DNA of 62,789 nt, counting the filler. It is 5 parts of 5 records of this genome, joined end to end, with 100 filler letters (N's around TTAATTAATTAA, not from the genome) between each part and the next. Parts side by side here need not be neighbours in the genome. Positions count along the whole stretch, not along the records: positions 52,426 to 62,789 come from SRR31147125_4953; 4 more parts are not named here. One strand, 5' to 3'. Both the position numbers and the translations under genes were made by a program. A model generated the notes under the pieces. That model worked only from the letters and a program-made list of their open reading frames with translations, made no database searches and was not told the DNA's origin. Shown piece by piece: positions 12,327-62,789 of the stretch (position 1 is the stretch's first letter; every line of letters starts with the position of its first letter).

Positions 12327-12387
12327 GGGACATGTAAACACGAAATAATAATTGAATCTCACTCTTGTCCAAAATAGGATTTGAATA

Positions 12388-16229: not shown

Positions 16230-16263
16230 TATGCCCTCCTAAAAATTAATAAAAATCCTAAAA

Positions 16264-20543: not shown

Positions 20544-20603
20544 TTCTATGAAAGTAAAATTTCAAAAATAGTGGGTAACAAAACTCACAAAAGGAGGATT
20601 TTT

Positions 20604-21425: not shown

Positions 21426-21490
21426 TATATTTAAAGTAATGCTCAAAAACGAAGAAAAAATTTGACTAAAAAAATAGAGGTGTAAGTGGA

Positions 21491-22815: not shown

Positions 22816-22850
22816 AAATTAATATTATGTGTCAGAAAGGTGGGCTAGAG

Positions 22851-23342
22851 ATGTATACGTTTGCAGTAATAACAGCTAGCGATAAAGGTTTTGCAGGAGA
22901 AAGAGAAGATACAAGTGGTAAATTGATTATAAAAATGATGACCGAAAAAGGCTATAAATTAGTCAAATATGTTATTTTACCTGATGATAAACAAACTATC
23001 TATGAAGAGTTATGCAAGATGAGTGATATATTAGAGGCTAATTTGATACTAACAACTGGTGGAACAGGGTTTAGTAAAAGAGATGTAACTCCAGAAGCAA
23101 CAATGAAAGCTATAGATAGGCATGCACCAGGTATAGCTGAAGCCATAAGATACAATAGTTTACAAATAACACCAAAGGGTATGTTATCTAGAGGAGTATC
23201 GGGTATGAGAGGGGAAACACTAATAGTTAATATGCCTGGTAGTAGAAAAGCTGTTGAGGAATCATTGTCATACATTATAGAACCGTTACATCATGGCTTA
23301 GAGATATTAAATGGTGATACAGCAAATTGTGGGAGAAAATAG
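22851..23342 (+). CDS. mog: molybdopterin adenylyltransferase (MogA/MoaB)
   Basis: 'TASD...REDTSG', 'TTGGTGFSKRDVTPEAT', 'MLSRG', 'NMPGS'. Confidence 0.9.
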   Translation: MYTFAVITASDKGFAGEREDTSGKLIIKMMTEKGYKLVKYVILPDDKQTIYEELCKMSDILEANLILTTGGTGFSKRDVTPEATMKAIDRHAPGIAEAIRYNSLQITPKGMLSRGVSGMRGETLIVNMPGSRKAVEESLSYIIEPLHHGLEILNGDTANCGRK

Positions 23343-23373
23343 ATATAAAATTTTGTCTTGAAAAGAGGGTATT

Positions 23374-24615: not shown

Positions 24616-26510
24616 ATGGATAAAAACAAAAGTAAAAGAAATATATACATCTCTAATTTTGCATTAGAGGAAGCTATTGCAAAATATAATGCAAAGTTAT
24701 CAATAGAGTATGAGCTAGAGACAGTTCCAGTAAGAGAAGCAGCATTTCGAACAACAGCAGAAGCTGTCTATGCAAATATTTCATCACCTCACTATCCATG
24801 TTCGGCAATGGATGGGATAGCAGTAAAAGCATCAACTACTTATGGAGCGTCAGAAGTAAATCCAAAATCTCTAATTGAACATGAAGATTTTGAATATGTT
24901 AATACAGGTTACCCTGTACCAAAAGACAAAGATTGTGTAATTATGATTGAGGATGTTGATGAGGTTGAGTCAGGAGAATTACAGATAATCAAGCCAGCTT
25001 ATCCATGGCAACATATAAGAGCGGTAGGGGAAGATATAGTACAAGGTGAGATGATAATAACATCTAATCACTATATCAGACCACTTGATATGGGAGCACT
25101 TATAAGTGGTGGAGTTAAAGAGTTAAAAGTGTATACGAAAGCCAAGGTTGGCGTGCTTCCAACTGGTAATGAAATTGTAGAGAATTATGAAGAACTTGAT
25201 TATGGGAAAATAATTGATTCAAATTCTGGAGTTTTCAAAAGTTTAATAGAGGAACTTGGAGGAGTTCCAACACTGTACTCGCCAGTTGAGGATGAAAGAG
25301 AGAGTTTAAAGGAAGCAATAAGTAGAGGTATTGTGGACAATGATATTTTAATTATAAATGCAGGATCTTCAGCAGGATCAAAAGATTTTACAGTTGATTT
25401 AATCAGAGAGATGGGAGAGGTCGTAGTACACGGAATAGCTCTAAAGCCAGGAAAACCTACTATACTCGGAATAATAAAAGGTAAACCTGTTATTGGGATA
25501 CCAGGGTACCCTGTATCAGCATATTTCTCATTTGATGTATTTGTAAGACCAATTATAGAGAGTTATACACATAAAAAGAAAAAAATGATATAATTAATGC
25601 AACTTTATCCCAAAGGGTAGTATCGTCATTTAAACATGAGGAGTTAGTTAGAGTAACTTTAGGTCAAGTAAACGAACAAAGAATCGCTACTCCGTTAAAT
25701 AGAGGAGCAGGTGCAACTATGAGTTTAGTCCGAGCTGATGGTGTATTAGTAATACCTAGAAAAGTAGAGGGAATAGAAGCTGGTCAAAATGTAGAGATTA
25801 AGTTGGTAAAACCTATTGATGAGATCATGAACAGATTAGTTTTTATAGGAAGTCATGATTTAACTGTGGATATTATAGCAGACAAACTACCACTTAGCTC
25901 AGGTCATGCAGGTAGTATGGGCGGAATAATGTCTATGAAAAGAGGAGAGTGTCATATAGCTCCAATTCACCTATTAGATGAAAAAACAGGTGAATATAAC
26001 ATATCATATATCAAGAAATTTATTAAAAATAGAGATATGAGTTTAATAAAAGGCGTAAAGAGATTACAAGGGATTATAGTTCAAAAGGGTAATCCAAAAG
26101 ATATTAAAGAGATAAAAGATTTAGTTAAAGAGGAGATCGTTTATGTGAATAGACAGCGTGGAGCAGGAACAAGACAGCTATTTGATTATGAGCTAAAACT
26201 TAATGGAATTAAAGCTGAAGAGGTTATAGGTTATAATAGAGAGATGACAACGCATACATCGGTAGCGGTAACAGTTAAGTCTGGTGGAGCAGATGCTGGT
26301 TTAGGTATCTACTCAGTTGCAAAAGCGATGAAGCTGGACTTTATACCTATTGGATTTGAGGAATATGATTTCCTAATTCCAACAGAGCTGTTAGATGATG
26401 CGAGAGTTAAGGAGTTTATTGAGATACTCAAATCAGAAGCATTTAAGAATAAACTAGAAGAGATAGGTGGTTATGAACTGGATAATCCTGGTGAGATAAT
26501 AACTGTATAA
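24616..26510 (+). CDS. moeA: MoeA fused to a periplasmic-binding (PBP/LysR substrate) domain; split by a 1-bp frameshift
   Basis: ORF 24616-25593 has 'SAMDGIAV' and 'KPGKP...GIPGYP'. Adding one A to the A7 run at 25579-25585 reads through into 25719-26510 ('GSHDL','GSMGG','VNRQRGAGTR'). Confidence 0.88.
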
Positions 26511-26563
26511 CTATCGAGAAATAAGGGTGGTGTCGAACAATGAGAAGTGAAGAGGGTTCGATT

Positions 26564-27532
26564 ATGCAAAATAGCTTAAAAGATAAGTTTGGAAGAGAGA
26601 TAAAATACCTTAGGTTATCTGTAACGGATTTGTGTAATCTGAGATGTAAATACTGTATGCCAGAGGATGGTATAGAAAAAATACCTCATAAAGATATGCT
26701 TACATATGAGGAGATGGATTTTGTAATAAAAAACTTAGTTGAAATGGGAATAGAGAAGATTAGAATAACTGGTGGTGAACCACTAGTAAAAAGAGGAATT
26801 GTTTCCTTGATAGAGATGATTAACTCCCATGAGGGTGTAAAAGATTTAACACTTACAACAAATGGAATATTGCTCGATTCAATGGCAGAGAGATTAAAAA
26901 AAGCTGGCTTACGAAGAGTTAATATTAGTATTGATTCATTAAAACCAGACAAATACAAAGAGATAACTAGAGGCGGAAATGTAGAGGACGTCCTAAAAGG
27001 AATAGAAGCAGCAAAAAAAGCTGGATTAACACCAATCAAACTAAATGTTGTATTGATGAAAGGCTTCAATGATGATGAAGTAAAGGATTTTGTCGAATTA
27101 ACAAGAGATAATGAGATTGACGTAAGATTTATAGAACTAATGCCAATAGGGGAACTATCAAAAACGTCCTATAATAAATATTTAGCAAATGAATTTATAT
27201 TAGAAAAGATCCCCGAGCTAGAGAGTGTAGAGGCTAGTGATCCTACTTCCCCAGCTAAATATTATAAACTAAAAAATGCAAAAGGAAAAGTTGGTTTAAT
27301 AAGTCCAATATCATGTAATTTCTGCGAAAATTGCAACAGAATAAGAATTACCTCTGATGGAAAATTAAAGTATTGTCTTCATTCAGATGAAGAGTTTGAT
27401 TTGAAATCAGTTGTGAGAAGTGAGAAGAATTTAAAGGAATTTTTACTAAGCTCCATAGAAAGAAAACCTGAAAAGCATAAATTGAATGATGGTGAACACA
27501 TAAGTAGAGGAATGTCTCAAGTTGGAGGTTAG
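26564..27532 (+). CDS. moaA: GTP 3',8-cyclase (radical SAM)
   Basis: '[18 protein letters not shown]', 'FCENCNRIR', C-terminal 'QVGG'. Confidence 0.95.
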
Positions 27533-43907: not shown

Positions 43908-44804
43908 ATGAAACATTATAAACTCTCAAAAAAGGAAAGATTTATTAATTTCATAACTCCATATCTTTTTGTGACGCCAAACCTTATAATCTTTATCTTG
44001 TTTTTCGTAATCCCAGTTACCATAGGGTTTAGTTATGCATTTACTGATTATGATGGCTTATTTCAAATGAATTTTGTTGGACTAGAAAATTTTAAAGCTT
44101 TACTTACTGATGATCTTTTCTGGACAGTGGTAAAAAATACATTTATTTACGTTGTATTAATGGTTCCATTTTTATATTTCACATCGCTCTTTGTAGCCTA
44201 TGTAATGACAAGAAAATTTGTATTTTTTAAAGGGATCTTTCGATCAGTATATTATTGGCCCGTACTTGTATCTGGTATCATTGTTGGTCTAACATGGAAA
44301 TGGATACTTGGGAACAACTTTGGAATATTAAACTATATTTTAACACAGATACATCTAACTCCAATTGGTTGGTTAACCGAAAGTATTCCGTCAAAATTTG
44401 CAATTGTAATAGCTACTTTATGGACTAGAGTAGGCTTTTTCATGGTTATATTCATGGGAGGGCTTGAAAGTATTCCTGAAACTTACTACGAAGCCGCAGC
44501 TATTGACGGAGCAACATCTAGAGATATTTTCTGGAAAATAACTCTACCATTACTAAAACCAACTAGCTTTTTAGTTTTAGTTTTATCAACTATGGAATCA
44601 TTTAAAGCATATCCTCTTATCCTTGCATTAACAGGAGGAGGTCCTGGTAGTAGTACAACCCTTATTATTCAATATATCTACCAAGAAGGTTTTGAAAGAA
44701 TGAACGTTGGATATGCAAGTGCTGTTTCAATGGTTATGGTTGTACTAATGGCATCTATGACTATTGTACAATTCAAAATGAACAAAGGAGGGAAAATCGA
44801 ATAA
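43908..44804 (+). CDS. carbohydrate ABC transporter permease 1
   Basis: 'FVGLENF', EAA motif 'YYEAAAIDGA', 'ITLPLLKP', 'GYASA'. Confidence 0.93.
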   Translation: MKHYKLSKKERFINFITPYLFVTPNLIIFILFFVIPVTIGFSYAFTDYDGLFQMNFVGLENFKALLTDDLFWTVVKNTFIYVVLMVPFLYFTSLFVAYVMTRKFVFFKGIFRSVYYWPVLVSGIIVGLTWKWILGNNFGILNYILTQIHLTPIGWLTESIPSKFAIVIATLWTRVGFFMVIFMGGLESIPETYYEAAAIDGATSRDIFWKITLPLLKPTSFLVLVLSTMESFKAYPLILALTGGGPGSSTTLIIQYIYQEGFERMNVGYASAVSMVMVVLMASMTIVQFKMNKGGKIE

Positions 44805-45628
44805 TGAAAGAGAAAAATGTAGTAATCTTTGGATATAACGTTTCGGCGCTTTTAATAGCCTTTATTATGTTATTTCCTGTGTTTTGGGTTCTTATGAGTT
44901 CTTTCAAAGGTGCAAATGAATTATTTTCCTACCCTTTAACAATATTTCCCAAAAACTTTACTTTGGAAAACTATAAAACCATATTAGCTGAGAGTGATTT
45001 TTTAAGATATTTCTTTAATACAACTTTCGTTGCTGTTATGTCAACAATTATAACTGTTGCAATAAATACAATGTGTGGATACGCATTTGCAAAACTAGAA
45101 TTCAAAGGAAGAGATTTCCTATTTATAGCATTTTTATGTACATCTATGGTTCCAACTTTACTAATCATGAGTCCTACATTTACTGTTATTAGTAAAATAG
45201 GATTATACAACAGCTTGTGGGGAATTATCATTCCACCAGCAGCGACACCTACTGGAATATTCTTAATGAGACAGTTTTTTATGACTATTCCTGAGTCACT
45301 GTCTGAAGCTGCTAGGATAGAGGGAGCTAATGAATGGCAGATATTTACTAAAATAATGATTCCATTAACAAAACCTGCTGTATCAATCTTAGTTATCTTC
45401 TCTATGATGTGGAGATGGAATGACTTTGTTTGGCCACTAATAGTTATTAGTGATCCAAGGAAGTATACACTGCAATTAGCACTAGCTAATCTGGCAGGGG
45501 AGAACAGAATTGATTGGTCAAGCTTACTTGCATCTTCTGTTATCTCAATGATTCCTTTATTAATAGTATTCTTAATTTTCCAAAAGTATATCATGAATGG
45601 TATGGTTACTGCTGGAATGAAAGATTAA
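44804..45628 (+). CDS. carbohydrate ABC transporter permease 2
   Basis: 'GYAFAK..FKGR', 'EAARIEGA', 'WNDFVWPL'. Confidence 0.93.
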   Translation: MKEKNVVIFGYNVSALLIAFIMLFPVFWVLMSSFKGANELFSYPLTIFPKNFTLENYKTILAESDFLRYFFNTTFVAVMSTIITVAINTMCGYAFAKLEFKGRDFLFIAFLCTSMVPTLLIMSPTFTVISKIGLYNSLWGIIIPPAATPTGIFLMRQFFMTIPESLSEAARIEGANEWQIFTKIMIPLTKPAVSILVIFSMMWRWNDFVWPLIVISDPRKYTLQLALANLAGENRIDWSSLLASSVISMIPLLIVFLIFQKYIMNGMVTAGMKD

Positions 45629-45739
45629 TTTTTATATAGTCTTATGTGGGGGTGAGTTATGAACTAAGGATATAAAAGTCTGAGGGTATATCGGTAAAAT
45701 TAAGTAACTACATTCTAATCAAAAAATAAGGAGGAAACA

Positions 45740-46987
45740 ATGAAGAAAAGATTATCACTTTTATTACTGTTATCATTAATGACTCTGTTATCGACACAGT
45801 CATTTGCATTATTTGGTTTTGGAAAAAAGAAAAAAGGTCCAAAAGTTATTCAATTTATGGTTTCTGATGATAAGCTAGAGGGTGCCCCTATTGCTCAGAT
45901 GGCTGAAAAATATAATGCTATGCAAGATGAGGTTAAAATTCAAGTAGTTGAATTACCTTATAAAGACGCAAGAGCAAAAGTTAAAACAATGATCTCTGCT
46001 AAAAAGCCACCTGCATTAATGAAAGTCTCTGGAATCGATGAGTTCGCTGGTGCTTTACTTGAATTAGATGATATTATTGATAGAAATGCTTATACTTCTG
46101 GTGTAAGAAATGAAATGACATTAGGTGGAGGAAGCGTGCTTGCTATGCCTCTTAATTTAACTGTAAATGGTATGTTATACAACAAAGATCTATTCAAAAA
46201 AGCCGGAGTTAAAGTTCCTACTGGAGCAGATGACGTATGGACTTGGGAAGAATGGGAAGAAGCAGTTAAAACTGTAGTTGAAAAAACTGAAGCTAGATTC
46301 GGAATGGTGTTTGACTACTCTGAGCACAGATGGAAAACTATGATGTACCAATTCGGTGGATACCAATTCGACGAAGAGGGAAATCCTAAACATAACAACC
46401 CTGAAAACAGAGCTGCTTTAAAATACTTTATTCACCTTCACGAAGTTGGGATCATTCCTGAAGACGTATGGTTAGGTGGAGAAGATTCATCAAACTTATT
46501 TAAAACTGGTACTGTTGCAACAATTTACTCGGGAAGCTGGAGAGTGTTAGACTATGCTAAATCAATTGATAGCTTCGATTGGGGAGTAGTATTAATGCCA
46601 AAAGCTAAAATGAGATCTACTATCATTGGTGGAAACTACATTGCTGCTTTCAAAGGAAGTGGATATGAAAAAGAAGCTAAAGATTTCATCAAATGGGTAA
46701 ATGAAGACGCTAACTACACTGAACTTTCTAAATATGGAAACTATATTCCTGCTAGACAGGGTATCACTCCAAAATATGAAGTTGGTGGAGATTCTAATAA
46801 CGTATTTGCACTAGAAGCTGCTTATGTTTCTGATAAAGCTCTTAACGATAAATATCAAGCAAATAAATACAAAGGTTGGTCAAACATCTTAAGAAAGAAC
46901 TTAGTATTTGCTCTTCAAGGTGAAAAAACAATCGATGAAGCTTTATCTGATACAGAAAAAGAGTTCTTAAAAACTAAGAAGAAATAG
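45740..46987 (+). CDS. sugar ABC transporter solute-binding protein (family 1)
   Basis: Cleavable signal peptide without a lipobox; 'YNKDLFKKAGV', 'WTWEE', 'FKTG', 'GSW'. Confidence 0.9.
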   Translation: MKKRLSLLLLLSLMTLLSTQSFALFGFGKKKKGPKVIQFMVSDDKLEGAPIAQMAEKYNAMQDEVKIQVVELPYKDARAKVKTMISAKKPPALMKVSGIDEFAGALLELDDIIDRNAYTSGVRNEMTLGGGSVLAMPLNLTVNGMLYNKDLFKKAGVKVPTGADDVWTWEEWEEAVKTVVEKTEARFGMVFDYSEHRWKTMMYQFGGYQFDEEGNPKHNNPENRAALKYFIHLHEVGIIPEDVWLGGEDSSNLFKTGTVATIYSGSWRVLDYAKSIDSFDWGVVLMPKAKMRSTIIGGNYIAAFKGSGYEKEAKDFIKWVNEDANYTELSKYGNYIPARQGITPKYEVGGDSNNVFALEAAYVSDKALNDKYQANKYKGWSNILRKNLVFALQGEKTIDEALSDTEKEFLKTKKK

Positions 46988-47243: not shown

Positions 47244-48973
47244 ATGAAAATAGGTAATAAATTGTCTTTAGGTTTTTTTATAATTATTTCATCATTGTTG
47301 CTTCTTTCTGGTATATTTATTTATTCCAATAAAATCTCAATTAATGAATTAAACAATATTAATTTAAAAACAGAGCAAATAAGTAATAATAATTCTGTTT
47401 TAATTACAACACAAATTGGAAAGGATTTTTTATCCTCAGAGTTTACTCCAAACATTATTTTACTAAGTTATGCTAAAAGCAAAAGTAAACTTTATAATTA
47501 TTCTAGAAGTGCCACAAATGGTTTAGATTCATTTACAATAACTATACAGGATATAGAAAACATTGAAGAGGTTTTAAAAATATCAAGTGAACTTAAAGAA
47601 GATCTTAAAAAGTTAACACAAAAAAAGAAGGATGAAATTATAAAGGGGATCGACGTAAGCGATTCAGCTATTAATTTAAAAATAATTCTAGCAAAAGTTA
47701 AAAAAATTAATATACTGCTAAAACCCTTTTTAAGTGATTCTCAACTTCAAAATACTACAATAATTAATGATATAAATAACCTAAGTCTAAATATTACTAA
47801 TATATTAAAATCATTAAATATGAAAAATTTTATTTTGATCTTTATAATTATCATAACTTCAGTTGCTCTATCTTTTTCTTTAACAAAAAGAACAAAGCAT
47901 ATATTCGATACACTTTTTCATTCAATTGAAAAGTTATCAAATCTAGATATTAGTACTACACATCTAAAACAAAATAAGAAAAAAGCTCTTTTGAACAAGA
48001 ATTTTTAATTAAAGGATTTCATAAAATAACAAACTCATTTAAAAATATTATTTATGAAATAGAGAATAGCTCAAATAATATGAAAGTAGAAGCAGATAAA
48101 ATCTCTACTACTATTCTAAAAAACAGCTCTTCCTCACAACAAATTTCGGCCAATATCTCTGAAATAACAAAAGACATTGGTTTTTCTGTAGACTCTTTAA
48201 AGGATATGAGCAATGAAATTGTGATTATTTCAAAAAATTCAACTGAAATGCTTGAAAACTTTAATACTATTAAAAATGTCAATGAAAATATGCTTAAAGA
48301 AGTTATTGAAGAAAATCAAACTATTGTACATACCACTGCTAAAATTATGTCTATAAGTGACGATATAGAGAAAAATATTCATAAAGTTGAAAAACTAAAA
48401 TCTCTTTCTACTGAAATTACCGAATATGTAAAAAATATATATGGGATAACTGAGCAAACTAATCTACTTGCTCTAAACGCTGCCATCGAAGCTGCAAGAG
48501 CTGGTGAATCAGGTAAAGGTTTTGCAGTTGTTGCTGAAGAAATTCGTAAATTAGCTGGAAATTCTAAAAGTATGGCTGAAGAGATTGAAAACAAAATATT
48601 CGATATCTCCAATAATATAAACGAGACCGTTGATAACTCTAAAAAGAACACTGAAAAAATTTCTGAAATGGTTCATGAAATTAATCGTATTCGAGAAACA
48701 TTTAAAAAAACAGCTGATGTTTTTGTTAATGTCGTTGAATCAATGAAAGGTGTATATTTAGATACAGAGGATCAAACTAATAATTTGCAACAACTTAACA
48801 AAGAATCAGGTAAAAGAATTGATACATTTAAACATATCCTTGTTAGCATTGAAGAGATAAACTTAGCTATGACTGATACCAGCAATTCAATCAATGAGCT
48901 GGTGTATGTTGCTGACACTCTTCTGGATACATCAAATGTTGTTAATGAAACTATCAGTAGGTTTAATCTTTAA
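47244..48973 (+). CDS. methyl-accepting chemotaxis protein; split by a 1-bp frameshift
   Basis: Two-TM sensor part 47244-48008 and signalling part '[34 protein letters not shown]'; frames join near the A6 run at 47979-47984. Confidence 0.9.
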
Positions 48974-52325: not shown

Positions 52326-52425
52326 NNNNNNNNNNNNNNNNNNNNNNNNNNNNNNNNNNNNNNNNNNNNTTAATTAATTAANNNNNNNNNNNNNNNNNNN
52401 NNNNNNNNNNNNNNNNNNNNNNNNN
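52326..52425. other. artificial contig spacer
   Basis: 44 N + TTAATTAATTAA + 44 N. Confidence 0.98.
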
Positions 52426-53457
52426 CCTTAGCTCATCTCTGCTAATCTCAAGTTCTTCAATTTGTTGAACCAAATTTTTGAACTTATCATCAATATTCAT
52501 TACCTCACGCCTATTCCTAAAACTTTGCAGTTGGCGCTCGGTTTGTCCTAAATCACCTGAGATATTCGCTAATTGTTCCTCAATATAATCAATGGTATTT
52601 CTTGCATTGTAATTCTTCTTTTCTAAGTTATCTTCCATATATTTATTAATGAGCCTTTCAAGAAACTCAAGTGATAACTTTAAATTTTCACCTTCAAAAG
52701 TTAATTGTGCTATGGATGATTGGAAAAAATTAGATTTAACAGTAAGCGATTCCTGGAATTTATAAGCTAACCCTTGTGGACTTTTAAACTGAAAGTATAA
52801 ATCCGAACCTTTATGTGCTTCATTTGAATAGTTGGAGTTTAATAAAACTTTAAATGAACACAGCCCATTTTTTACAACATCCCCGAATTTATAAGTTCCG
52901 CTGATATAGAATTTACGTCGTTCATCTAATACTCGTTCTTTTTCTGGCAAGTATAAAGATGTCTCCTCTTTCTCTGCATATATTACAAAACTATTTTGAT
53001 CTAAAATCTTTATATAGAATAGGGTATTTAATGGTTGTACTTTGTTTTTATCAACTATTACTATAAAAGGATTATTCTTATAAATATTATTTAAACCAAA
53101 AGACATTCTCATTGGAAGCTTATCTGCCTTAGAGTAATATGATGTAAATAAATTCATATCATTTATAACATCTTTTATCAATGGCGTTGATTGTAAAATA
53201 TTTACTTCATCAGACAGGTTTTTTTCCTGATTCATCAGATCGTTTACATTTACATAGGTATTTGTTGAGCGTGTCTGCATTCTTTCAGTATTAATTAAAA
53301 CTTTTGCAGAAACACTATATGTCTTAGAGGAATACTTCAGATATACTGCGGCAATAGCAAGAAAAATAAAACAAGATATGCCGATTAGAAGCCAATAGCT
53401 TAAAAATATCCGAAGAATATAAAAGATATCAATTTTTTTCTTCGCTGTATTTTCCAT
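52426..53457 (-). CDS. wzc: polysaccharide co-polymerase/tyrosine kinase Wzc, 3'-truncated
   Basis: Wzz-like N-terminal TM; 'EVNILQS', 'TIDYIEEQL...E.QLQSFR' coiled coil; downstream of wza. Confidence 0.85.
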
Positions 53458-54732: not shown

Positions 54733-55722
54733 TTATTTATCATCTTTCGTATCTTCAGAAGACGATATAGAATCTCGCATATTTGTATCAGACTCAATAT
54801 TTTTCATTCTGTAATAGTCCATAATACCAAGGTTTCCAGATTTAAATGCATCTGCCATTGCCAATGGAATTTCAACCTCGGCCTCAATTACTTTTGCTCT
54901 AGCTTCCTGGGCTTTTGCTTTCATTTCTTGCTCAAGAGCAATTGCCATAGCTCTTCTTTCCTCTGCCTTTGCCTGGGCAATATTCTTATCTGCGTTTGCC
55001 TGGTCAATTTGTAACACAGCACCAATGTTTTTTCCTATATCGATATCAGCAATATCAATTGAAAGAATCTCGAATGCAGTACCAGAATCTAAACCTTTTT
55101 CAAGAACAACGCGAGAGATTGAATCTGGATTCTCTAAAACTGATTTGTGAGTCTCTGAAGAACCAATTGATGAAACAATACCTTCACCAACACGGGCCAG
55201 AACTGTATCTTCACCAGCACCACCAACTAATTGCTTAATGTTAGCCCTTACTGTTACCCTCGCTTTTGAAATAAGCTGAATACCATCTTTCGCAACAGCA
55301 GTTACCGGAGGCGTATTAATTACTTTAGGGTTAACAGACATTTGAACAGCCTCAAAAACATCTCTACCTGCAAGATCGATAGCAGTTGCCATGTTAAATG
55401 GCAGGTCTATATTCGCTTTATTAGCTGAAACCAGAGCATGTACTACTTTTTCAATGTGACCCCCTGCCAGATAATGCGCTTCCAAATCATCGCGTTTTAT
55501 TTGACTTAAACCTGCTTTGTAAGCTTCAATCATTGCTCTTACAATAACTCCAGGAGGAACTTTACGCCAACGCATAAAAATAAGTTGTACCAAAGAGATA
55601 CGAACACCAGAAACCAATGCCTGGAACCATAAGTTAAGCGGGATAAGATATAACAGCAGAATTAAACCTACAATTCCGAGAATAATAAAAATAATACTAC
55701 TTCCAATTCCAATTTCTTCCAT
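54733..55722 (-). CDS. floA: flotillin-like protein FloA (YqfA/UPF0365)
   Basis: 'LEAHYLAGG', 'AIDLAGRDV', '[16 protein letters not shown]', '[10 protein letters not shown]', 'GNLGIMDY'. Confidence 0.93.
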
Positions 55723-55729
55723 GTGAATA

Positions 55730-56200
55730 TTAATTTATTGGTTTAACAAGAACATTTGTGGATAATATTTTTACAACTTCAATCTTTGTTTTTTCATCAA
55801 TATAACCTCCCATAGACTTTCCCTCAATAACCTTATTATTGATTCTAACTTTGCCTATTGGGTTTAACCTTGTAATTGCTTCTCCTTGATCTCCAATTTT
55901 AATATCTTTCTTCTCAAGACCATAATCAACATGCCCATCGATACTTTTATTTAGCATGGCTACCTTCCAGGTTCCAGACTTAAGGGCAATTACTAATAAT
56001 GCAATTGTGGACGCTATTGTACAAAGTAATACAAAATTCCCAGTTGTTGCACCTAATGAATAGTAAGCATAAAATATAGCTATTCCGATAGAAAGAAAAC
56101 CACCAATACCGGCAATAGTAACGCCTGGTGCAATTAGAAATTCAACTATAAGTAGGGCGATTCCGAGAAGTATTAATAAAATGATAGCTGTTAGTGACAT
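55730..56200 (-). CDS. nfeD: short NfeD-family protein
   Basis: Three TM helices with 'EFLIAPG...AGIGG'; OB-fold '[10 protein letters not shown]'; adjacent to floA. Confidence 0.85.
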
Positions 56201-56216
56201 TTATTTAAGTTAAGTG

Positions 56217-56504
56217 CTAATCTATTGTTGCTTTTAGGCCCCTTTCGATTAATTGATATCTCATGGGTTTCAAAAAATCATCAGACCCCTTTTTAACTTC
56301 GCACTTCCCTTTGTAATGCACAATATATGTACATTGTTCTGCCTGCATTACATCGTGTTCACAAACTTCAACTAATGCGTCAATTACAAAATCAAAAGTA
56401 TGCACATCATCATTGTAAAGAGTGAGAAATTTCTTCTTCTCACTTTCACTTTCCATCACCTCCTCAAAGTCAGGTTTACTGATATATTTTTCTTCATCTG
56501 CCAT
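56217..56504 (-). CDS. clpS: ATP-dependent Clp protease adaptor
   Basis: 'LYNDDVHTFDFVI', 'QAEQC...VHYKGKC'. Confidence 0.92.
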   Translation of the reverse strand: MADEEKYISKPDFEEVMESESEKKKFLTLYNDDVHTFDFVIDALVEVCEHDVMQAEQCTYIVHYKGKCEVKKGSDDFLKPMRYQLIERGLKATID

Positions 56505-56529
56505 AAATAAGCATCTATTTATATCTGTT

Positions 56530-56559
56530 CAAAAGTATAAAATTTAAAGAAATAACAAA
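56530..56559 (-). promoter_or_regulatory. Bacteroidota-type promoter for clpS-nfeD-floA
   Basis: -7 element TACTTTTG (56537-56530) with TTTG 18 nt upstream. Confidence 0.65.
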
Positions 56560-56790
56560 ATACAATATAGTCGTTACAACAGTTGTTTTTTGAAGAAATT
56601 CAGGAAATTATCAACATGCATACCCACATAATAATATAGAGATATTACAATACTATAATATGTTTCATTAGAAGCATAATAATAATCAAACAGCAATAAA
56701 GTCAAGCTTCAACAAGAATTGCGCTTTACTTTATTTTACTATTTTTATTGCCTTTTTAAATAAAATATAGTTTACTACCGATACTATTTT

Positions 56791-58203
56791 ATGAGTAATT
56801 CAACAATTATTATAATAATATGCTTTGTTTATTTTGCTTTTCTAATTCTTGCCGGAATTTATTCAGCAAAGAAAAACAAAAAAGCATCGGACTACCTTAT
56901 TGCCGGACAAAAGTTAAACCTATTGTTTACAACAGCTACATTATCTGCCGTACAGATTGGCGCAGGAATTATTTTAGGTGGTTCCATAAATGGGGAATCA
57001 ATGGGTATATGGCCAGGGATGTGGTATGCACTTGGTTGTGGAGGCGGATTAATCCTGGCCGGGATTTTTATTGCAGGTAAATTACGAAAAAAAGAAAGCT
57101 ACGTTCCATTAGATTTTTATGAATTAAGATATGGTAAAAATAAATGGGTCAGGATATGGGCGTGGGCAAGCAACGTTCCAAGTTTATTGGGTATATATAT
57201 TGCCCAACTTCTTGCTTGTGGAAGTATCTTGTCTGGATTTGGCATACCATTTTATACCGGGGTAATAATATGTGCTGTTGTTATTTTAATTTACAGCACA
57301 CTAGGAGGTATGTGGGGTGTTGCCATTGCAGATTCAATTCATACACTGGTAATAGTAATAAGTATTCCTGTTTTGGCTATTGCATCAACTTCAATTTTAA
57401 AAAATAATGGTTTTGTATTAGAATCTATTTTTAATACCCCTTTTATTCCTTCAGGTACTTTTTCAAAATTCATATACCTGGTTGTTCCTTTCTTAATTGC
57501 TATATCTGTTTCATATGATGCTTATATTCGATACCAATCGGCCAAAGATGCCCATACAGCAAAATGGGGCTGTATTTTGGCTGGAATTGTTGTGATAATA
57601 ATTGGTGTTCTTGCATCATCAATTGGTGCTATGGGACACTATTTGGTACCCGAGGCAAAGGAAGGTGTATTCTCGGCAATGGTTATAAAATCACTAAATC
57701 CGGTTATGGCCGGTATTGTAATTGCAGCGATGCTTGGGGCAGCAATGTCAAGTGCATCAGGATTGCTGGTAGCGATGGGAGCTACTTTTTCTCGCGATTT
57801 CTATAACTGTTTTTTAAATCCCGAGGCACAACTCGATGAACTTCCTAAATCGAAACTAATTTCCCGGCTTGCGGTGGCACTGAGTGCTGTAATTGGTATA
57901 TTGTTATCATTTAAGGTTACAAATATTCTTGATGCCATAATAATATTTAACTACCCATATATGGGAAGCCTACTAATACCGCTACTTGCCGGAGTTCTAT
58001 GGAAAGGGGCAACAAAAAAAGGCGCTGTTGCAGCAATGTTCGCTGGTGGATCTATTGGAGTTGGTTCTTTTTTAACAGGAATCCCCGGACCATTTAAAGA
58101 TTGGTTTAAACCCGATCTGGGATTATTTTTTGCCTACTCGGTTTCATTAATAGTATTAATAATAGTTAGCAAAACAGACAAACAATTAAATCATGCAAAA
58201 TAA
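56791..58203 (+). CDS. sodium:solute symporter (SSS) family protein
   Basis: About 13 TM segments; 'DYLIAG', 'YSTLGGMWGVA..D', 'AAMSSAS', 'W..AT..GA'. Confidence 0.9.
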   Translation: MSNSTIIIIICFVYFAFLILAGIYSAKKNKKASDYLIAGQKLNLLFTTATLSAVQIGAGIILGGSINGESMGIWPGMWYALGCGGGLILAGIFIAGKLRKKESYVPLDFYELRYGKNKWVRIWAWASNVPSLLGIYIAQLLACGSILSGFGIPFYTGVIICAVVILIYSTLGGMWGVAIADSIHTLVIVISIPVLAIASTSILKNNGFVLESIFNTPFIPSGTFSKFIYLVVPFLIAISVSYDAYIRYQSAKDAHTAKWGCILAGIVVIIIGVLASSIGAMGHYLVPEAKEGVFSAMVIKSLNPVMAGIVIAAMLGAAMSSASGLLVAMGATFSRDFYNCFLNPEAQLDELPKSKLISRLAVALSAVIGILLSFKVTNILDAIIIFNYPYMGSLLIPLLAGVLWKGATKKGAVAAMFAGGSIGVGSFLTGIPGPFKDWFKPDLGLFFAYSVSLIVLIIVSKTDKQLNHAK

Positions 58204-60130
58204 TAATTGGCCTTATCTTTTGGAATGGGATAAAGAGGAGATCGTACAAGCTGACATTCTTGTTTTAGGTGGTGGAATTGCCGGGTGCATGGCAGCTATT
58301 GCTGCTGCTCAAAAAGGTCAAAAGGTTGTACTTGTTGAAAAAGGTGCTACAAAAATGAGTGGTGCGGGTGGTTCTGGTTGCGATCATTGGGAATCTGCAG
58401 CAACAAACCCATGCTCCAAAATATCACCAGAAAAACTAACCCAAGCCATGTTAGATGACAATGATGGCTACAACAATGGAATCTCGCATTACATTGAATG
58501 CCGCGAAGGATATGACCGCCTACTTGACATTGAAAAAATGGGAGGAAAAATTCGGGATACTGAAGGTGAATTTGAAGGCGCCGCATTTCGCGATGAAAAA
58601 ACTAAATTTATGTTTGCCTACGACTATAAAAACAAATTTACTTTACGAATATGGGGCACAACCTTTAAACCAGCCATGTATCGCGAGTTAAAAAAACTTG
58701 GAGTTAAGATAATAGATCGTGTTATGGTAACTTCATTGCTCACGGAAAATGGTGAACAAGGCAACAGATGTATTGGAGCAACAGGAATAAATACACGAAC
58801 GGGTAAATTCTATATTTTTAAAGGGAAAGCTAGCATAATGTGTATGTCAAGGCCGGCAAGAGTTTGGTTATTTTCCTCAACACACACTGGATTAAGTGAG
58901 TTCCGTCCAACACAATGCATTGGTGATGGACATGCTATGGGATGGAGAGCAGGTGCAGAATTTACAATGATGGAAAAATCTGTAGGTGCAGAATTTTCAG
59001 CCGCTGGAAGAAGTTATCCACCCTATGGGGCAGGAAATAACCATAATACCTGGTATGGCGCTACGTTAATTGATGCAACCGGAAAAGAAATTCCTTATGT
59101 TAATAGAGATGGAGAACCATTAAACTCAATTGAAGACCGTTTCATTCCATCAGAAAATCAGGAGTTTTTCTTAAAAGGGGGTTCTGTAGATTATCCAAAT
59201 TATGAAATTGAAGGCCCTGAGACTATACCTTTTTCAAAATTGCTGAAAGAAGGATATAAACTACCCTTTTATGCTGATTTAACAAATCTTCCCGAAGCTG
59301 AACGCAAAGTGATCTGGGGAATGATGGTTGGTGAAGAGGGGAAAACGAAAGTACCGATTTACGATAATTACAAAAAGGCCGGCTTTGATCCCGAAAAACA
59401 TGTTTTGCAATGTTATGGAACAGGATGGACTTCTGCTAGTTTCTTGCCACAGGAAAGACAACTTTTTGGACTTCCCGGTGGATTTCTCAACGATTGGAGA
59501 CTATCTACAAATCTTGAAGGACTATTTGTTGCTGGGGATGCACTCTATGCTTCAAACTGTTACGGACATGCCGCAGCAACCGGACACTATGCGGGTAGGC
59601 ATGCCGCAGATTTTGCATCGAGCGTAAATATTATTGATTTTAACAGAAAACAAGTTGATAAGGAAAAAAATCGGATATATGCACCAATCAGCAACAATCC
59701 AGATAATTCAATTGGCTGGAAAGAGCTCAACCAGGGAATTTCAAAGACAATGCAAAACTATTGTGGAGAAACAAAGTACGATGATTTATTAAAAACCGGT
59801 TTGCTCAGGTTGCAGGAATATGAATCGAAACTTCATACCAACACTTATGCATACAATCCGCATGAATTAATAAGATTGCTTGAGGTATTTGATATACTTA
59901 CAGTTTCTCAATTAATTCTCAATGCTTCATTAGCACGTAAGGTTAATTCAAAACCTCTTTGTTTTTTCCGAGGTGATAATAATCAGGAAGAACAAGATGA
60001 AAATAAAAAATTGATCGTTATTCGTCAAAACAACAACAAGATAGTTACTAGAAACTTAGACGTAGATTTTTTTGGCGACTTATGCTACAATTATGAAAAG
60101 TATAATGCAAAATACATCGAATCAAATTAA
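58193..60130 (+). CDS. FAD-dependent oxidoreductase of the APS reductase alpha/SDH flavoprotein superfamily (AprA-like, not true AprA)
   Basis: 'DILVLGGGIAG...LVEKG...SGAG', 'GDGHAMGWRAGAEFTMME', 'TNLEGLFVAGD', helical C-terminal domain 'MQNYCG...HELIR.LE'; overlaps the SSS stop. Confidence 0.85.
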   Translation: MQNNNWPYLLEWDKEEIVQADILVLGGGIAGCMAAIAAAQKGQKVVLVEKGATKMSGAGGSGCDHWESAATNPCSKISPEKLTQAMLDDNDGYNNGISHYIECREGYDRLLDIEKMGGKIRDTEGEFEGAAFRDEKTKFMFAYDYKNKFTLRIWGTTFKPAMYRELKKLGVKIIDRVMVTSLLTENGEQGNRCIGATGINTRTGKFYIFKGKASIMCMSRPARVWLFSSTHTGLSEFRPTQCIGDGHAMGWRAGAEFTMMEKSVGAEFSAAGRSYPPYGAGNNHNTWYGATLIDATGKEIPYVNRDGEPLNSIEDRFIPSENQEFFLKGGSVDYPNYEIEGPETIPFSKLLKEGYKLPFYADLTNLPEAERKVIWGMMVGEEGKTKVPIYDNYKKAGFDPEKHVLQCYGTGWTSASFLPQERQLFGLPGGFLNDWRLSTNLEGLFVAGDALYASNCYGHAAATGHYAGRHAADFASSVNIIDFNRKQVDKEKNRIYAPISNNPDNSIGWKELNQGISKTMQNYCGETKYDDLLKTGLLRLQEYESKLHTNTYAYNPHELIRLLEVFDILTVSQLILNASLARKVNSKPLCFFRGDNNQEEQDENKKLIVIRQNNNKIVTRNLDVDFFGDLCYNYEKYNAKYIESN

Positions 60131-60142
60131 AAATAGATAGCT

Positions 60143-60418
60143 ATGATATTTGAAATGCCAGCCTCCAAGCCCATAATTTTTAACGAGGAAAAATGTATTG
60201 GTTGCAATCAATGCATTGAAATATGTCAGGTTGATTTATTTCTCCCAAACCCCGATAAGAATAAAAAAGCACCGATCGTTGCCTTTCCTGGTGAATGTTG
60301 GTATTGTGGCAATTGTGTTGTCGTTTGCCCATCAGAAGGAGCTATTGAGCTTAGGCACCCGTTAATGAATCAAGTCCATTGGATTGAAAAATCTGAATTA
60401 ATAAAATCTAATAAATAG
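60143..60418 (+). CDS. 2x[4Fe-4S] ferredoxin, AprB-like partner subunit
   Basis: 'CIGCNQCIEIC', 'ECWYCGNCVVVCP..AIEL.HP'; the CWxC motif resembles AprB. Confidence 0.85.
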   Translation: MIFEMPASKPIIFNEEKCIGCNQCIEICQVDLFLPNPDKNKKAPIVAFPGECWYCGNCVVVCPSEGAIELRHPLMNQVHWIEKSELIKSNK

Positions 60419-60430
60419 ATTGTTTATCGT

Positions 60431-61183
60431 TTAATCTTCCAGCCACATTTTAAATGCCTTAACCCGTTCGCGGCTAACAATCAAATCATCTGGTTCTTTT
60501 GAGTTTACTTTTATCTGTAATCGAGAATTGGAGAAAGAAATAATATCTTTTATGGCAGAAAATGCCAATATATACTTTCTATTTATCCGAAAAAATTTCT
60601 TTGGTTCAAGTAATTCCTCCAATTGCTCAAGAGAGTAATTTACAGCATAATCCCTTCCTGTATCGGTATGTAAAAATGTAGCCTTCTCCATCGATGAAAA
60701 AAACAATATTTGCTCAGTCTTTAAAACCTTAATATGCTCCCCAACCTTAACTACAAATTTTGTTTTGTACTCGTTTGTTAATTGCTTAAGAACTGAATCG
60801 AAAACATGAGAAGAAAGAGGTGTAGATTTCACATTCGACTTGTACTTTTCTATTGCCTTACTCAGTTCATCAAAATCGATGGGTTTAAGCAAATAATCAA
60901 TACTATTTACTTTAAATGCCTTAAGTGCATATTCATCGTATGCTGTAGTAAAAATTATTGGTGATTTAACAATCGTTTTTTCAAATATTTCAAAACTAAT
61001 TCCATCAGCTAATTGAATATCCATAAAAATTAAGTCTACATCATAATTATTCTCAAACCAGATTACTGATTCTTGTACACTTTGCAAAACTTCCAGAACA
61101 TCAATATTTTCATCGTATCGTTTTATGAGTTCTTTAAGTCTTTCTGCTGCTATTTTTTCATCTTCAATTATTAGGCAATTCAT
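60431..61183 (-). CDS. LytTR-family response regulator
   Basis: 'IIEDE', 'FMDIQLADG', 'FTTAYDEYA', 'DYLLKP', 'FFRINRKY', 'VSRERV'. Confidence 0.95.
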   Translation of the reverse strand: MNCLIIEDEKIAAERLKELIKRYDENIDVLEVLQSVQESVIWFENNYDVDLIFMDIQLADGISFEIFEKTIVKSPIIFTTAYDEYALKAFKVNSIDYLLKPIDFDELSKAIEKYKSNVKSTPLSSHVFDSVLKQLTNEYKTKFVVKVGEHIKVLKTEQILFFSSMEKATFLHTDTGRDYAVNYSLEQLEELLEPKKFFRINRKYILAFSAIKDIISFSNSRLQIKVNSKEPDDLIVSRERVKAFKMWLED

Positions 61184-62234
61184 TCGGTGATTCGATTATT
61201 GGAATTTTGACAGTAAAAAATTCATCGTCTTCAATTATTTCAACGGGGTGATCGGTTATATACATATACCTTTTCTTAAGATTTTCCAATCCTAACGGAT
61301 CGGTGTCGCCCGAAATTACTTTCTTGCGCTGCAGATTATTTCTAACAATAATATATGATGCTTCTTCAGTAATAGAAACATCAAGAGACATTTTATCGCT
61401 AATTATATTATGCTTAATGCAGTTTTCAACCAAAATCTGCAAACCTAAGGGTAAAATATATTTCAATTCTGAATCAATTTTAATTGTTACTTTTAAACCA
61501 TCACCATGACGCATTTTTGCCAGGTAGATGTAGCTCTCAACAAAATCAATTTCTTCGTGCAATGTTACTAATTCTTTATCCCTCTGCTCAAGAACATACC
61601 TATATATATCAGAAAGTTTCTTTATAAAATGAACCGCATTTTCTTGATTTTGCTCTACAATTCCCGTTAATGTATTTAAACTATTAAACAAAAAATGTGG
61701 GTTTACCTGATTCTTTAATGCTTCGTACTTAGCTATTAAATGATCTCGTTCTGACTCTTCATATTTTTCAATTGCCTTTTTCCAATAAAAAACCAGGTAT
61801 CTTGAATAATAAACCGATATGACAAGCAAATCAATTGATAGTGCAAGAAATGCATTAAAAATAACATTGTACTTTAAGTTTTGACCCGTATGATGAAATA
61901 CGTATTTATGTACAATAAATGGAAATACAATGCTGACAATAATTCCATAAAAAATAAATGACATCAATGCAATCATATTCGATGAATTGAGATTTTTTGC
62001 CCAATTCAGTTTTCTTCCTGTATATGCACCTATTGCCCAATTCCCTAGCCAAAACAGAATACCAATTGAAAATCCATACCCAATGTGATTTAAGTATCTT
62101 TTGGCAGAACTAAATATTTCTGTGCCATTGAAAATAAGACTAATTATTGTAGTAATTGAGACCAAAGCTAACAACCCCCATATCACTGTTGTTAAAATCT
62201 TTCTTCGCATACTCTTCTGTCTCTTTTTTTCCAT
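61164..62234 (-). CDS. LytS/YehU-family membrane histidine kinase
   Basis: Four TM helices; 'LKNQVNPHFLFNSLN', 'LVENCIKHN', 'GLENL..RY'. Confidence 0.93.
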   Translation of the reverse strand: MEKKRQKSMRRKILTTVIWGLLALVSITTIISLIFNGTEIFSSAKRYLNHIGYGFSIGILFWLGNWAIGAYTGRKLNWAKNLNSSNMIALMSFIFYGIIVSIVFPFIVHKYVFHHTGQNLKYNVIFNAFLALSIDLLVISVYYSRYLVFYWKKAIEKYEESERDHLIAKYEALKNQVNPHFLFNSLNTLTGIVEQNQENAVHFIKKLSDIYRYVLEQRDKELVTLHEEIDFVESYIYLAKMRHGDGLKVTIKIDSELKYILPLGLQILVENCIKHNIISDKMSLDVSITEEASYIIVRNNLQRKKVISGDTDPLGLENLKKRYMYITDHPVEIIEDDEFFTVKIPIIESPNELPNN

Positions 62235-62281
62235 GTTTTAAAGATAGTTATTAGAAAATGAAATGTATAAAGTGATAAAAA

Positions 62282-62330
62282 TGCCAGTTACAGGTTATCA
62301 CGCATTCAATCGAATAACATGTAACTGGCA
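62282..62330. repeat. intergenic inverted repeat
   Basis: TGCCAGTTACA (62282-62292) / TGTAACTGGCA (62320-62330), extended by GTTAT/ATAAC. Confidence 0.75.
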
Positions 62331-62336
62331 ACAAGT

Positions 62337-62789
62337 TTAAATGTCTTCTTTACAAGTTTGTAATTGTTTTTCACAATCTTCTTTACCCCATGACGGCATA
62401 ATTCCATTAACAGGCTTAAATTTCACAAATAATTCTGAGGCCTGAGAAAGTAATGGTAGTGCAGCTTTTTTTCCTCCACCATATTCTTCAGGAGTATACA
62501 TTACATTAAGTGCTTCAAGATAATATGGCCTTGGATTATTGGGATTCAACTTTTTTGCATCATTAAAAGAAGCATGGGCTTTGCCTGAATAAATCTGTCC
62601 GTTTGCCATAGGATTTAACATTATATATGCCTGATACAACATCCCCTGCAACGTATGAATCTCAGATTCTTCACTGTTTATGTTTATTGCTTCGTCTAAC
62701 TGCTGTTGTGCAAAATCAAGGTATTTTTGTTTTTGTGGTATATCTTGAGTTTTAAAAGATAGAATGATATTTATGTAAGACGCATAATA
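62337..62789 (-). CDS. TPR-like helical hypothetical protein, 5'-truncated
   Basis: Frame is open from the window end ('YYASYINI...'); 'A.KLNPNNPRPYYL', 'TPEEYGGGK', 'PSWG'. Confidence 0.75.
   Translation of the reverse strand, partial: YYASYINIILSFKTQDIPQKQKYLDFAQQQLDEAININSEESEIHTLQGMLYQAYIMLNPMANGQIYSGKAHASFNDAKKLNPNNPRPYYLEALNVMYTPEEYGGGKKAALPLLSQASELFVKFKPVNGIMPSWGKEDCEKQLQTCKEDI

Follow-up and report, generated by a model that had tools for sequence, protein, structure and literature searches.

A compact cassette pairing exchangeable importers with a two-subunit flavo-Fe–S enzyme of the FrdA/AprA superfamily

The FrdA/AprA superfamily of flavoproteins has supplied several key respiratory and electron-sink enzymes. 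Here we describe a cassette that encodes a sodium:solute symporter (SSS), an FAD-containing flavoprotein of this superfamily (the alpha subunit) and a small ferredoxin (the beta subunit), at positions 56791–60418 of a 62,789-nucleotide stretch of DNA (hereafter the window; it consists of five joined parts, and the cassette lies in the one from record SRR31147125_4953). In concept the cassette resembles the TcuABC system of tricarballylate utilisation, which also combines an importer, a FAD_binding_2 flavoprotein and an Fe–S electron-transfer protein, but TcuB is a membrane Fe–S protein and TcuC a carrier of the major facilitator superfamily (MFS), unlike the corresponding products of the cassette.

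The solved structures nearest to the enzyme pair are those of 3′-phosphoadenosine 5′-phosphosulfate (PAPS) and adenosine 5′-phosphosulfate (APS) reductases. Like the cassette enzyme, the PAPS reductase of M. thermolithotrophicus (8A8O) combines an FAD-binding alpha subunit with a short beta subunit that carries two [4Fe–4S] clusters and no long AprB tail; ferredoxin has been proposed as its electron source (PMC10322725). The two share 20% identity, however, the capping region of the cassette family is about 100 residues larger than in relatives of about 560 amino acids (aa), and the cassette has neither sulfate-activation genes nearby nor sat in the five carrier genomes searched. With AprAB (1JNR/2FJA) the pair shares the fold, a non-covalent FAD, counterparts of Asn-A74 and Arg-A232 and an aromatic residue at the place expected for Trp-B48, whereas Trp-A234 and Leu-A70 are not kept, the AprB tail is missing and sat, qmo and dsr are absent. 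In its account of the AprAB active site, PMC2211403 presents Asn-A74 as a sulfite-contacting residue, Arg-A232 as locking Trp-B48 and Trp-B48 as passing electrons from cluster I to FAD, and it also describes Leu-A70 and Trp-A234 on the flavin face, the invariant Arg-A265 and His-A398, and an adenine clamp of Arg-A317 and Leu-A278.

The DiSCo study described a further 'AprAB-like' complex, of unknown function and mostly from Clostridia, in which an AprA-like flavoprotein is joined by a tail-less AprB-like subunit; it adjoins sat, cysDC, asrABC, TusA and sulfate transporters, and a role in sulfur assimilation was proposed (PMC8477390). These neighbours do not recur beside the cassette pair; the two sets, which may overlap in membership, differ in this described context. 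With FrdA, SdhA and NadB the flavoprotein has in common the superfamily and the three-domain layout, and its invariant R316, two positions from the R287 column, might correspond to that proton donor, but it has no covalent-FAD histidine and none of the three flavin-domain substrate ligands. In place of an SdhB-type subunit it is paired with a di-cluster ferredoxin of 91 aa, and a membrane anchor is lacking.

We propose that the locus is a mobile three-gene cassette made up of an importer for a small organic anion and a two-subunit flavo-Fe–S enzyme, most likely reductive, and we hold this reading, taken as a whole, to be probable by a modest measure. The anion brought in by the Na+/solute symporter, most probably a carboxylate derived from amino acids or peptides, would then be converted by the cytoplasmic alpha–beta enzyme. 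The alpha subunit would hold a non-covalent FAD in an APS-reductase/fumarate-reductase fold with a capping domain and active-site residues of its own. A soluble low-potential carrier, such as reduced ferredoxin or flavodoxin, would donate electrons to the outer cluster of the beta subunit; from there they would travel by way of the inner cluster and aromatic residue 53 to the FAD, where the imported compound would be reduced. That compound would serve as an electron sink, and the product would be excreted or be a common metabolite.

The flavoprotein and its place in the superfamily

The features of the locus are listed below by their positions in the window.

56791–58203, plus strand: gene of the SSS importer, an open reading frame (ORF) of 470 aa with the Pfam SSF domain
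58193–60130, plus strand: gene of the flavoprotein (alpha subunit), 645 aa, FAD-containing member of an unnamed branch of the FrdA/AprA superfamily
60143–60418, plus strand: gene of the ferredoxin (beta subunit), 91 aa, of the 2×[4Fe–4S] type with an AprB-like core and no tail
56566–56790, plus strand: non-coding upstream part of the inserted segment, the presumed promoter region; similarity to the empty site of the related genome G003 stops near 56560–56566
56566–60425, no strand: the whole inserted segment of about 3.86 kb between clpS and lytTR, delimited by blastn against the G003 locus (L082)
56217–56504, minus strand: clpS (PF02617), the upstream flank
60431–61183, minus strand: LytTR response regulator gene, the downstream flank, which with its histidine kinase gene forms a pair spanning 60431–62234

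The SSS and flavoprotein genes share 11 bp, and the flavoprotein gene ends 12 bp ahead of the ferredoxin gene. The motifs SGAGGSGCDHW and AGAEFTMME occupy residues 56–66 and 253–261 of the flavoprotein, and ECWYCGNC occupies residues 51–58 of the ferredoxin. An earlier note on this DNA, made by a model from the letters alone, had correctly read the three-gene operon with its coordinates, overlap and spacing, the three motifs and the clpS and lytTR flanks. Pfam places FAD_binding_2 (PF00890) at residues 21–261 of the flavoprotein, together with a weak Succ_DH_flav_C match, and two Fer4 domains in the ferredoxin. As judged from the 120 flavoprotein homologs listed, which have 72–83% identity over 93–100% of the query with E = 0, the three ORFs are evidently not chance.

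The sat, qmo, dsr, sdhB/C and nadA/C families, whose absence from the neighbourhood had been remarked on earlier, and the apr families were found in none of the 45 window ORFs scanned (8 genes of the operon region and 37 other large ORFs). An Rfam search of window positions 56300–60700 gave no element, riboswitches included, at E ≤ 1, and promoter-like hexamers were not enriched upstream (19 found against 17.4 expected from shuffles). Reading of the two enzyme subunits revealed neither a signal peptide nor a membrane segment, and the enzyme would therefore be cytoplasmic and depend on uptake of its substrate.

A word-indexed search, in which 7997 candidates were scored, returned 4378 homologs of the flavoprotein at E ≤ 1e-3; the 120 listed bear only generic names such as 'FAD-dependent oxidoreductase' and 'succinate dehydrogenase/fumarate reductase flavoprotein subunit'. 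The pair had been called an orphan; the term suits its lack of pathway context but not so large a protein family. Among one genome per species from 185,579 species, 309 genome stretches encode a relative, of which 80 loci were retained for the neighbourhood counts given below. The family spans at least eight phyla. Its carriers include Bacteroidota, many Clostridia (among them Lutispora, Clostridium malenominatum, Fusibacter, Sedimentibacter, Blautia and other Lachnospiraceae), Spirochaetota, Planctomycetota, Acidobacteriota, Gemmatimonadota and one Asgard metagenome-assembled genome (MAG). Across these groups, an alignment of 27 sequences (A1) has a mean column identity of 67% and very many invariant charged and aromatic residues, which points to unusually strong constraint.

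An exhaustive search of 1.84 billion representatives yielded 2489 matches at E ≤ 1e-3. Full-length members of 635–683 aa reach down to 37% identity with at least 352 bits; a gap in the scores follows, and beyond it lie proteins of 542–592 aa with 29–35% identity and at most 208 bits. Matches in the ESM Atlas were unnamed FAD_binding_2 clusters only. We found no characterisation of the family in the full-text literature, a scope outside which most subscription journals lie, and in the literature searched neither this branch nor the sister group of about 560 aa has a curated model, a solved structure or a paper. We conclude that the flavoprotein represents a new, unnamed branch of the known FrdA/AprA superfamily.

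Family membership was judged by the curated cut-offs of NCBIfam. The best score of the flavoprotein, 184.7 bits with PRK08275 (NF006131), fell far short of the cut-off of 587, as did those with the models of Apr-like PAPS reductase NF005331 (104.5 bits against 557), TfrA (100.1 against 718), AprA TIGR02061 (84.4 against 641.75), sdhA_frdA (73.5 against 567), nadB (39.1 against 453) and TcuA (29.1 against 369). Ten further family members scored 76–100.6 bits with TIGR02061 or did not reach an E-value of 1e-20. With PRK08275, 10 family and 16 outgroup proteins scored 131.8–340 bits, and none of these 26 reached any NCBIfam cut-off.

The closest solved chains by sequence are 8a8o_A (E = 3e-20), A. 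fulgidus AprA (E = 3e-16) and SdhA/FrdA chains (E = 1e-5 to 1e-3). An AlphaFold2 model built on A1, with a mean predicted local distance difference test score (pLDDT) of 82.9 and a predicted template modelling (TM) score (pTM) of 0.89, retrieved 8a8o_A first in Foldseek (E = 8e-29, TM-score 0.77 on the target, 20% identity), followed by the AprA structures 1jnr/2fja (TM-score 0.70) and E. coli FrdA (E = 7e-26). Loops 57–61, 226–242, 266–283, 379–389 and 410–417 have pLDDT below 50 though they are among the most conserved parts of A1; in view of the model, such loops probably take on a fixed shape only once FAD, substrate or the beta subunit is bound.

We then compared individual residues with those of AprA, using a phmmer alignment to 1jnr_A together with A1. 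Invariant N72 aligns to Asn-A74 and invariant R238 to Arg-A232, whereas Trp-A234 falls opposite the variable T240 and Leu-A70 opposite C63, which is C, F, V or S in the family; one of the three flavin-face residues Asn-A74, Leu-A70 and Trp-A234 is retained. The A1 profile aligns to 1jnr_A/2fja_A at profile positions 6–61, 145–260 and 433–614 only, and no profile alignment was obtained for the AprA capping region with Arg-A265, Val-A273/Gly-A274, Leu-A278, Arg-A317 and His-A398. Alignment to 8A8O is likewise confined to profile positions 14–62, 144–259 and 428–620.

For E. coli FrdA, the substrate, covalent-FAD and proton-donor residues were taken as PMC5773532 describes them. In an hhalign alignment (probability 96%), H232, T244 and H355 correspond to S269, N285 and F425 of the flavoprotein, and R390 of the 'HGAN' motif is lost in a 9-residue deletion that BLASTP also places there. 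At the covalent-FAD H44, MAFFT opens a gap opposite 'HTVAAEG', where the family reads S56-G57. Opposite the proton donor R287 stands I318; two columns off, in a low-identity stretch, is the invariant R316, which might be the equivalent of R287. Since no NCBIfam cut-off was reached and the residue comparisons point away from these families, we judge, in agreement with the earlier note, that the flavoprotein is not an APS/PAPS reductase and does not belong with the fumarate reductases, succinate dehydrogenases or aspartate oxidases either. Five carrier genomes (Maribellus, Saccharicrinis, a Bacteroidales MAG, Draconibacterium and Lutispora thermophila) gave 0/5 for sat, 0/5 for dsrA and 0/5 for aprA above its cut-off.

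Subunit pairing, importers and the inserted segment

A ferredoxin homolog adjoins the flavoprotein in 77 of the 80 loci, and the three misses lie within 36 bases of a contig end. In four loci, from Lachnospiraceae or Ruminococcus, flavoprotein and ferredoxin form a single ORF. The window ferredoxin has two CxxCxxCxxxC motifs (C18/21/24/28 and C52/55/58/62) and belongs to the 2×[4Fe–4S] type. Seven of the eight cluster cysteines are invariant in 76/76 partners, while position 55 holds Cys in 67/76, and eight of the nine exceptions have Asp or Glu there. In every partner the residue that follows the opening Cys of the second motif, at position 53, is aromatic (W in 50 partners, Y in 26); it lies where the counterpart of AprB Trp-B48 would be expected, the equivalence being one of motif position. 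With the AprB model TIGR02060 the ferredoxin scored 31.2 bits against a cut-off of 135.65, over model positions 2–65 of 132. It matches residues 2–65 of 150 in 1jnr_B, as well as the 104-aa chain 8a8o_C, and at 91 aa it is without the beta-sheet and tail segments of full AprB (about 130–150 aa). The matches to 8a8o and 1jnr bear out the AprA/AprB-like fold and the tail-less ferredoxin suggested earlier. Given the adjacency, the fusions, the conserved cysteines, aromatic residue 53 and invariant R238, we conclude that the two proteins pair as the alpha and beta subunits of one enzyme.

The window symporter scored 87.8 bits with PF00474, against a cut-off of 22.8. Because it stayed below the equivalog cut-offs of PanF (101.9 bits against 328) and PutP (91.1 against 515.5), no substrate was assigned to it. 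An SSS homolog (48–83% identity) is present in 24 of the 80 loci, directly upstream on the same strand in 23 and on the opposite strand in one; these loci comprise all 14 from Bacteroidota, others from Spirochaetota, Planctomycetota, Acidobacteriota and Gemmatimonadota, and three from Bacillota. A further 24 loci have an Opp/Dpp-type ATP-binding cassette (ABC) transporter in place of the SSS, with SBP_bac_5, two permeases and two ATPases.

We also examined 31 divergent metagenome loci (L083–L113), whose flavoproteins are 38–70% identical to P0125. Beside the pair stand a TAXI-type tripartite ATP-independent periplasmic (TRAP) transporter and GntR/FCD regulators in L087, L092 and L097, Opp-type components in L083, L085, L086, L093, L095 and L104, a LIV-type permease in L086, CitMHS in L104 and an SSS in L090. 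Collectively, these data show that the importer is interchangeable and that the constant unit consists of an importer, the flavoprotein and the ferredoxin. The uptake-plus-redox module put forward in the earlier note is upheld by this recurrence and by the discrete nature of the insert described below. Among the divergent loci, L088 and L112 carry tandem duplicate flavoprotein–ferredoxin pairs, and in L087, L097 and L103 two flavoprotein-like ORFs are present and the ferredoxin lies upstream.

The floA gene lies 1 kb upstream of the cassette. Its product shares 96% identity with its counterpart in the Bacteroidales MAG G003, 82–83% with those of three other Bacteroidota carriers and 64% with that of Lutispora, which identifies the host as a Bacteroidota organism close to G003. 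Comparison with G003 by blastn showed that window positions 54753–56560 correspond to L082 positions 10158–8357, and 60430–62789 to 8266–5916. The FloA-NfeD-ClpS and LytTR-kinase blocks are thus contiguous in G003, about 90 bp apart (L082 8266–8357, contig G003:C2), versus 3.87 kb in the window. The extra DNA (about 56566–60425) consists of the three genes and 225 bp upstream of them, and ends at most 12 bp past the ferredoxin stop. Since this close relative has an empty clpS–lytTR site, we conclude that the cassette is a discrete relocatable unit. A separate contig of G003 carries a copy of its own, with 83% identity.

The flanking genes of the window recur in none of the 80 loci within 8 kb of the flavoprotein, except for a weak LytTR match (23% identity, L057). 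The gene is present in 1/401 sampled Bacteroidota genomes and 1/151 Maribellus-family genomes, each time in the centre genome itself; the cassette is rare in Bacteroidota. A plasmid search gave no match at E ≤ 1e-20. In a FastTree phylogeny with SH-like supports and long outgroup branches (74 family rows, 4 outgroup rows), the earliest branches are the SSS-linked forms of Gemmatimonadota, Planctomycetota and Acidobacteriota and the Asgard sequence. The window sequence belongs to a Bacteroidota clade of 10 rows with support 96, which in turn lies inside a 23-row set (support 99) that also contains Lutispora and C. malenominatum. This topology fits a transfer between Clostridia and Bacteroidota, its direction being unproven. 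With a G+C content at third codon positions of 0.255–0.326 in the cassette and 0.21–0.32 in its flanks, compositional evidence of recent transfer is weak. The suggestion that the genes came from an anaerobe stands as far as a transfer is plausible, given the Clostridia-nested clade and the rarity of the gene in Bacteroidota, but it implies no change of lifestyle, the host itself being a likely anaerobe.

Substrate clues and rival explanations

In Clostridia outside the Lachnospiraceae, the usual gene order is a divergent GntR/FCD regulator, the flavoprotein, the ferredoxin and an M42 aminopeptidase. In many cases SBP_bac_5 and an amidohydrolase come next, or else M20 peptidases (additional M20 genes follow M42 in L021 and L033). 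Over the 80 loci, GntR/FCD occurs in 29, M42 in 29, the amidohydrolase in 10 and M20 in 6, and at least one of the three hydrolases in 35. The best NCBIfam score of the linked M42 protein was 221 bits against 412 (PRK09961) and that of the linked amidohydrolase 66 bits against 500 (an Xaa-Pro dipeptidase model), while the linked M20 protein passed the 'amidohydrolases' subfamily TIGR01891 with 365.6 bits against 153.75; NCBIfam places these hydrolases at superfamily level only. Outside Clostridia, peptidases are sporadic: S37/S28 lies directly 3′ of the ferredoxin in Saccharicrinis (L002) and Acidobacterium (L034), and single cases of M14 (L037), M20 (L062) and an Asp/Glu racemase (L015) were seen.

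A Pfam tally covered 242 not-yet-annotated neighbours, from three genes upstream to four downstream, 10 proteins of more than 900 aa having been dropped. The first batch of 121 contained alpha-amylase and TetR (4 each), Ala_racemase_N, GcvH, M20 and GNAT (3 each), and urocanase and S37 (2 each); the second contained MatE and LysR (4 each), Pyr_redox_2 and DAO (3 each) and DAPDH_C (2). Sulfite exporter, sulfite reductase, sulfonate lyase and sulfur-carrier families were not among the 25 commonest of either batch. Urocanase lies immediately upstream of the SSS in two Draconibacterium loci; a histidine/urocanate link was not adopted, as it was seen in one genus only. A link to peptidoglycan peptides or D-amino acids was also set aside, the counts being too low (Ala_racemase_N 3, DAPDH_C 2, Asp/Glu racemase 1, M14 1).

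The typical ligands of PutP/PanF-related SSS, of TAXI-TRAP and CitMHS carriers and of FCD-type GntR regulators are carboxylates. From the importer types, the FCD-type GntR regulators and the peptidases together, our best guess for the substrate is a small carboxylate, imported free or freed from imported peptides; an amino-acid- or peptide-related carboxylate fits better than a sulfonate. Minimal three-gene forms occur in Bacteroidota and Lachnospiraceae, so that no dedicated downstream enzyme is required, and this suits the role of an electron sink. A reductase would also fit the low-potential 2×[4Fe–4S] partner in a host with ferredoxin-linked metabolism, as indicated by an aldehyde:ferredoxin oxidoreductase (AOR) and a 2-oxoacid oxidoreductase fragment.

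The same module could work in the opposite direction, as a catabolic dehydrogenase that oxidises an imported amino acid, hydroxy acid or similar compound and passes electrons through the two clusters to an acceptor. NadB and SdhA are oxidising members of the superfamily, L-aspartate oxidase carrying out its oxidation within this very fold; MAGs of Gemmatimonadota, Acidobacteriota and Planctomycetota, not necessarily fermenters, carry the module as well, and peptidase and racemase neighbours would suit amino-acid catabolism. We nevertheless think this direction unlikely, though a serious contender, since C–C and C–N dehydrogenations are generally too high in potential to reduce typical 2×[4Fe–4S] ferredoxins, and since neither an acceptor-side partner (quinone-binding anchor, cytochrome or electron-transferring flavoprotein) nor, in the minimal cassettes, a downstream catabolic enzyme recurs. 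More doubtful still is a reaction of the Apr type, in which an imported organosulfur compound, be it a sulfonate, a sulfate ester or an S-sulfo compound, would be cleaved reductively by way of a flavin N5–sulfite adduct. It would draw on the PAPS and APS reductases as nearest solved structures and on Asn-A74 and Arg-A232 being kept as N72 and R238, but Trp-A234 is replaced by the variable T240, the region of Arg-A265 and His-A398 does not align, and the organosulfonate or other sulfur substrate considered in the earlier note found no contextual support: no sulfite or sulfonate family is in the top 25 of either batch or in the recurrent clusters, the sulfatase in L039 and the arylsulfotransferase in L086 are isolated cases, and the five carrier genomes are devoid of sat, aprA and dsrA. 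A soluble fumarate reductase, succinate dehydrogenase or L-aspartate oxidase, as public annotations of relatives and weak matches to the TfrA, SdhA/FrdA and NadB models would have it, is very improbable with scores far under the cut-offs and the equivalents of H232, H355, T244, R390 and H44 lost. Virtually no credence attaches to a genuine dissimilatory or assimilatory APS/PAPS reductase: fold and subunit architecture agree with one, but the scores with TIGR02061 and NF005331 lie below their cut-offs, the capping domain is unalignable, sat is absent from the window and the five carrier genomes, and an importer would be pointless for APS, which is made in the cytoplasm.

Several observations weigh against our own proposal of an importer-linked reductase. 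In 32 of the 80 loci, several of them on truncated contigs, neither an SSS nor an Opp-type ABC transporter was seen within about 8 kb, although one of them (L018) has a LIV-type ABC with a solute-binding protein and a permease. Most of the peptidase association comes from a single large Clostridial clade, and the window's own cassette does not show it. The pocket is not readable from the model because the active-site loops have pLDDT below 50, and invariant N72 keeps an Apr-like sulfur chemistry possible. That the reductive direction is most likely follows from general thermodynamic reasoning, not from data. Finally, no transposase, integrase, terminal inverted repeat or clear target-site duplication was seen on reading the junctions, which involved no systematic repeat search.

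A bolder form of the proposal is that the enzyme defines a new class, a ferredoxin-dependent cytoplasmic flavo-Fe–S reductase on the APS-reductase scaffold, possibly with a flavin-N5 adduct, acting on an imported amino-acid- or peptide-derived metabolite. We offer it tentatively and consider it possible but doubtful. If true, it would amount to a horizontally traded electron sink for fermenters of sediments and of the animal and human gut, comparable to Stickland-type reductases. The family is in any case highly conserved, exchanged between phyla and present in gut Lachnospiraceae. Its steady association with exchangeable importers implies that a single metabolite, or only a few, is probably being consumed in anoxic sediments, digesters and guts by a route absent from current pathway maps. 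The question is also experimentally tractable, with a compact cassette, dedicated GntR/FCD regulators and cultured carriers in Maribellus, Saccharicrinis, Draconibacterium, Lutispora and Fusibacter.

Host, window content and minor observations

The host is likely an anaerobe, because the window encodes an AOR and other ferredoxin-linked genes. The following features lie elsewhere in the window or in related loci.

Window 695–1444: 2-oxoacid oxidoreductase, thiamine pyrophosphate-domain protein (fragment)
L041, 14288–14438: lysine riboswitch preceding dapA-dapB in a Clostridial locus, judged unrelated to the module
L047, 15937–16121: cobalamin riboswitch near the module in a Clostridial locus, judged unrelated
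L017, 3026–3723: CRISPR array near the module in a Clostridial locus, judged unrelated

The two riboswitches were the only ones seen in eight related loci; as each lies several kb downstream of the pair, riboswitches were rejected as a clue to the ligand.

Window positions 4001–12326 hold a set of importer and ferredoxin-linked redox genes: an iron-containing alcohol dehydrogenase (4001–5173), the TRAP components DctP (5193–6236) and DctM (7077–8360), a GntR/FCD regulator (9827–10501) and the AOR (10626–12326). This AOR was not found in the five carrier genomes (G001–G005). At 20571–27532, a tungstate/molybdate-type ABC transporter (PBP_like_2, ABC_tran) stands with two MoeA, PBP_like and MoaA, a cofactor supply that would serve AOR. 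On the minus strand at 14865–17608, a sodium:alanine symporter gene lies beside one for alanine dehydrogenase, a simple alanine uptake-plus-oxidation pair. A methyl-accepting chemotaxis protein (MCP) signalling-domain protein (48080–48973) and a sugar ABC transporter with SBP_bac_1/8 (43908–46987) beside GH88 look unusual for a Bacteroidota host. The window contains 352 N, and the ORF at 52378–53457 has a run of X as its C-terminus.

In the divergent locus L083, two genes of the enoate-reductase type (Oxidored_FMN with Pyr_redox_2; 2703–4694 and 10481–12457) flank the family member, together with Opp permeases. AOR genes adjoin the divergent pairs in L094 (9608–13676) and L106 (9476–11425), and a molybdopterin oxidoreductase gene is also present in L094.

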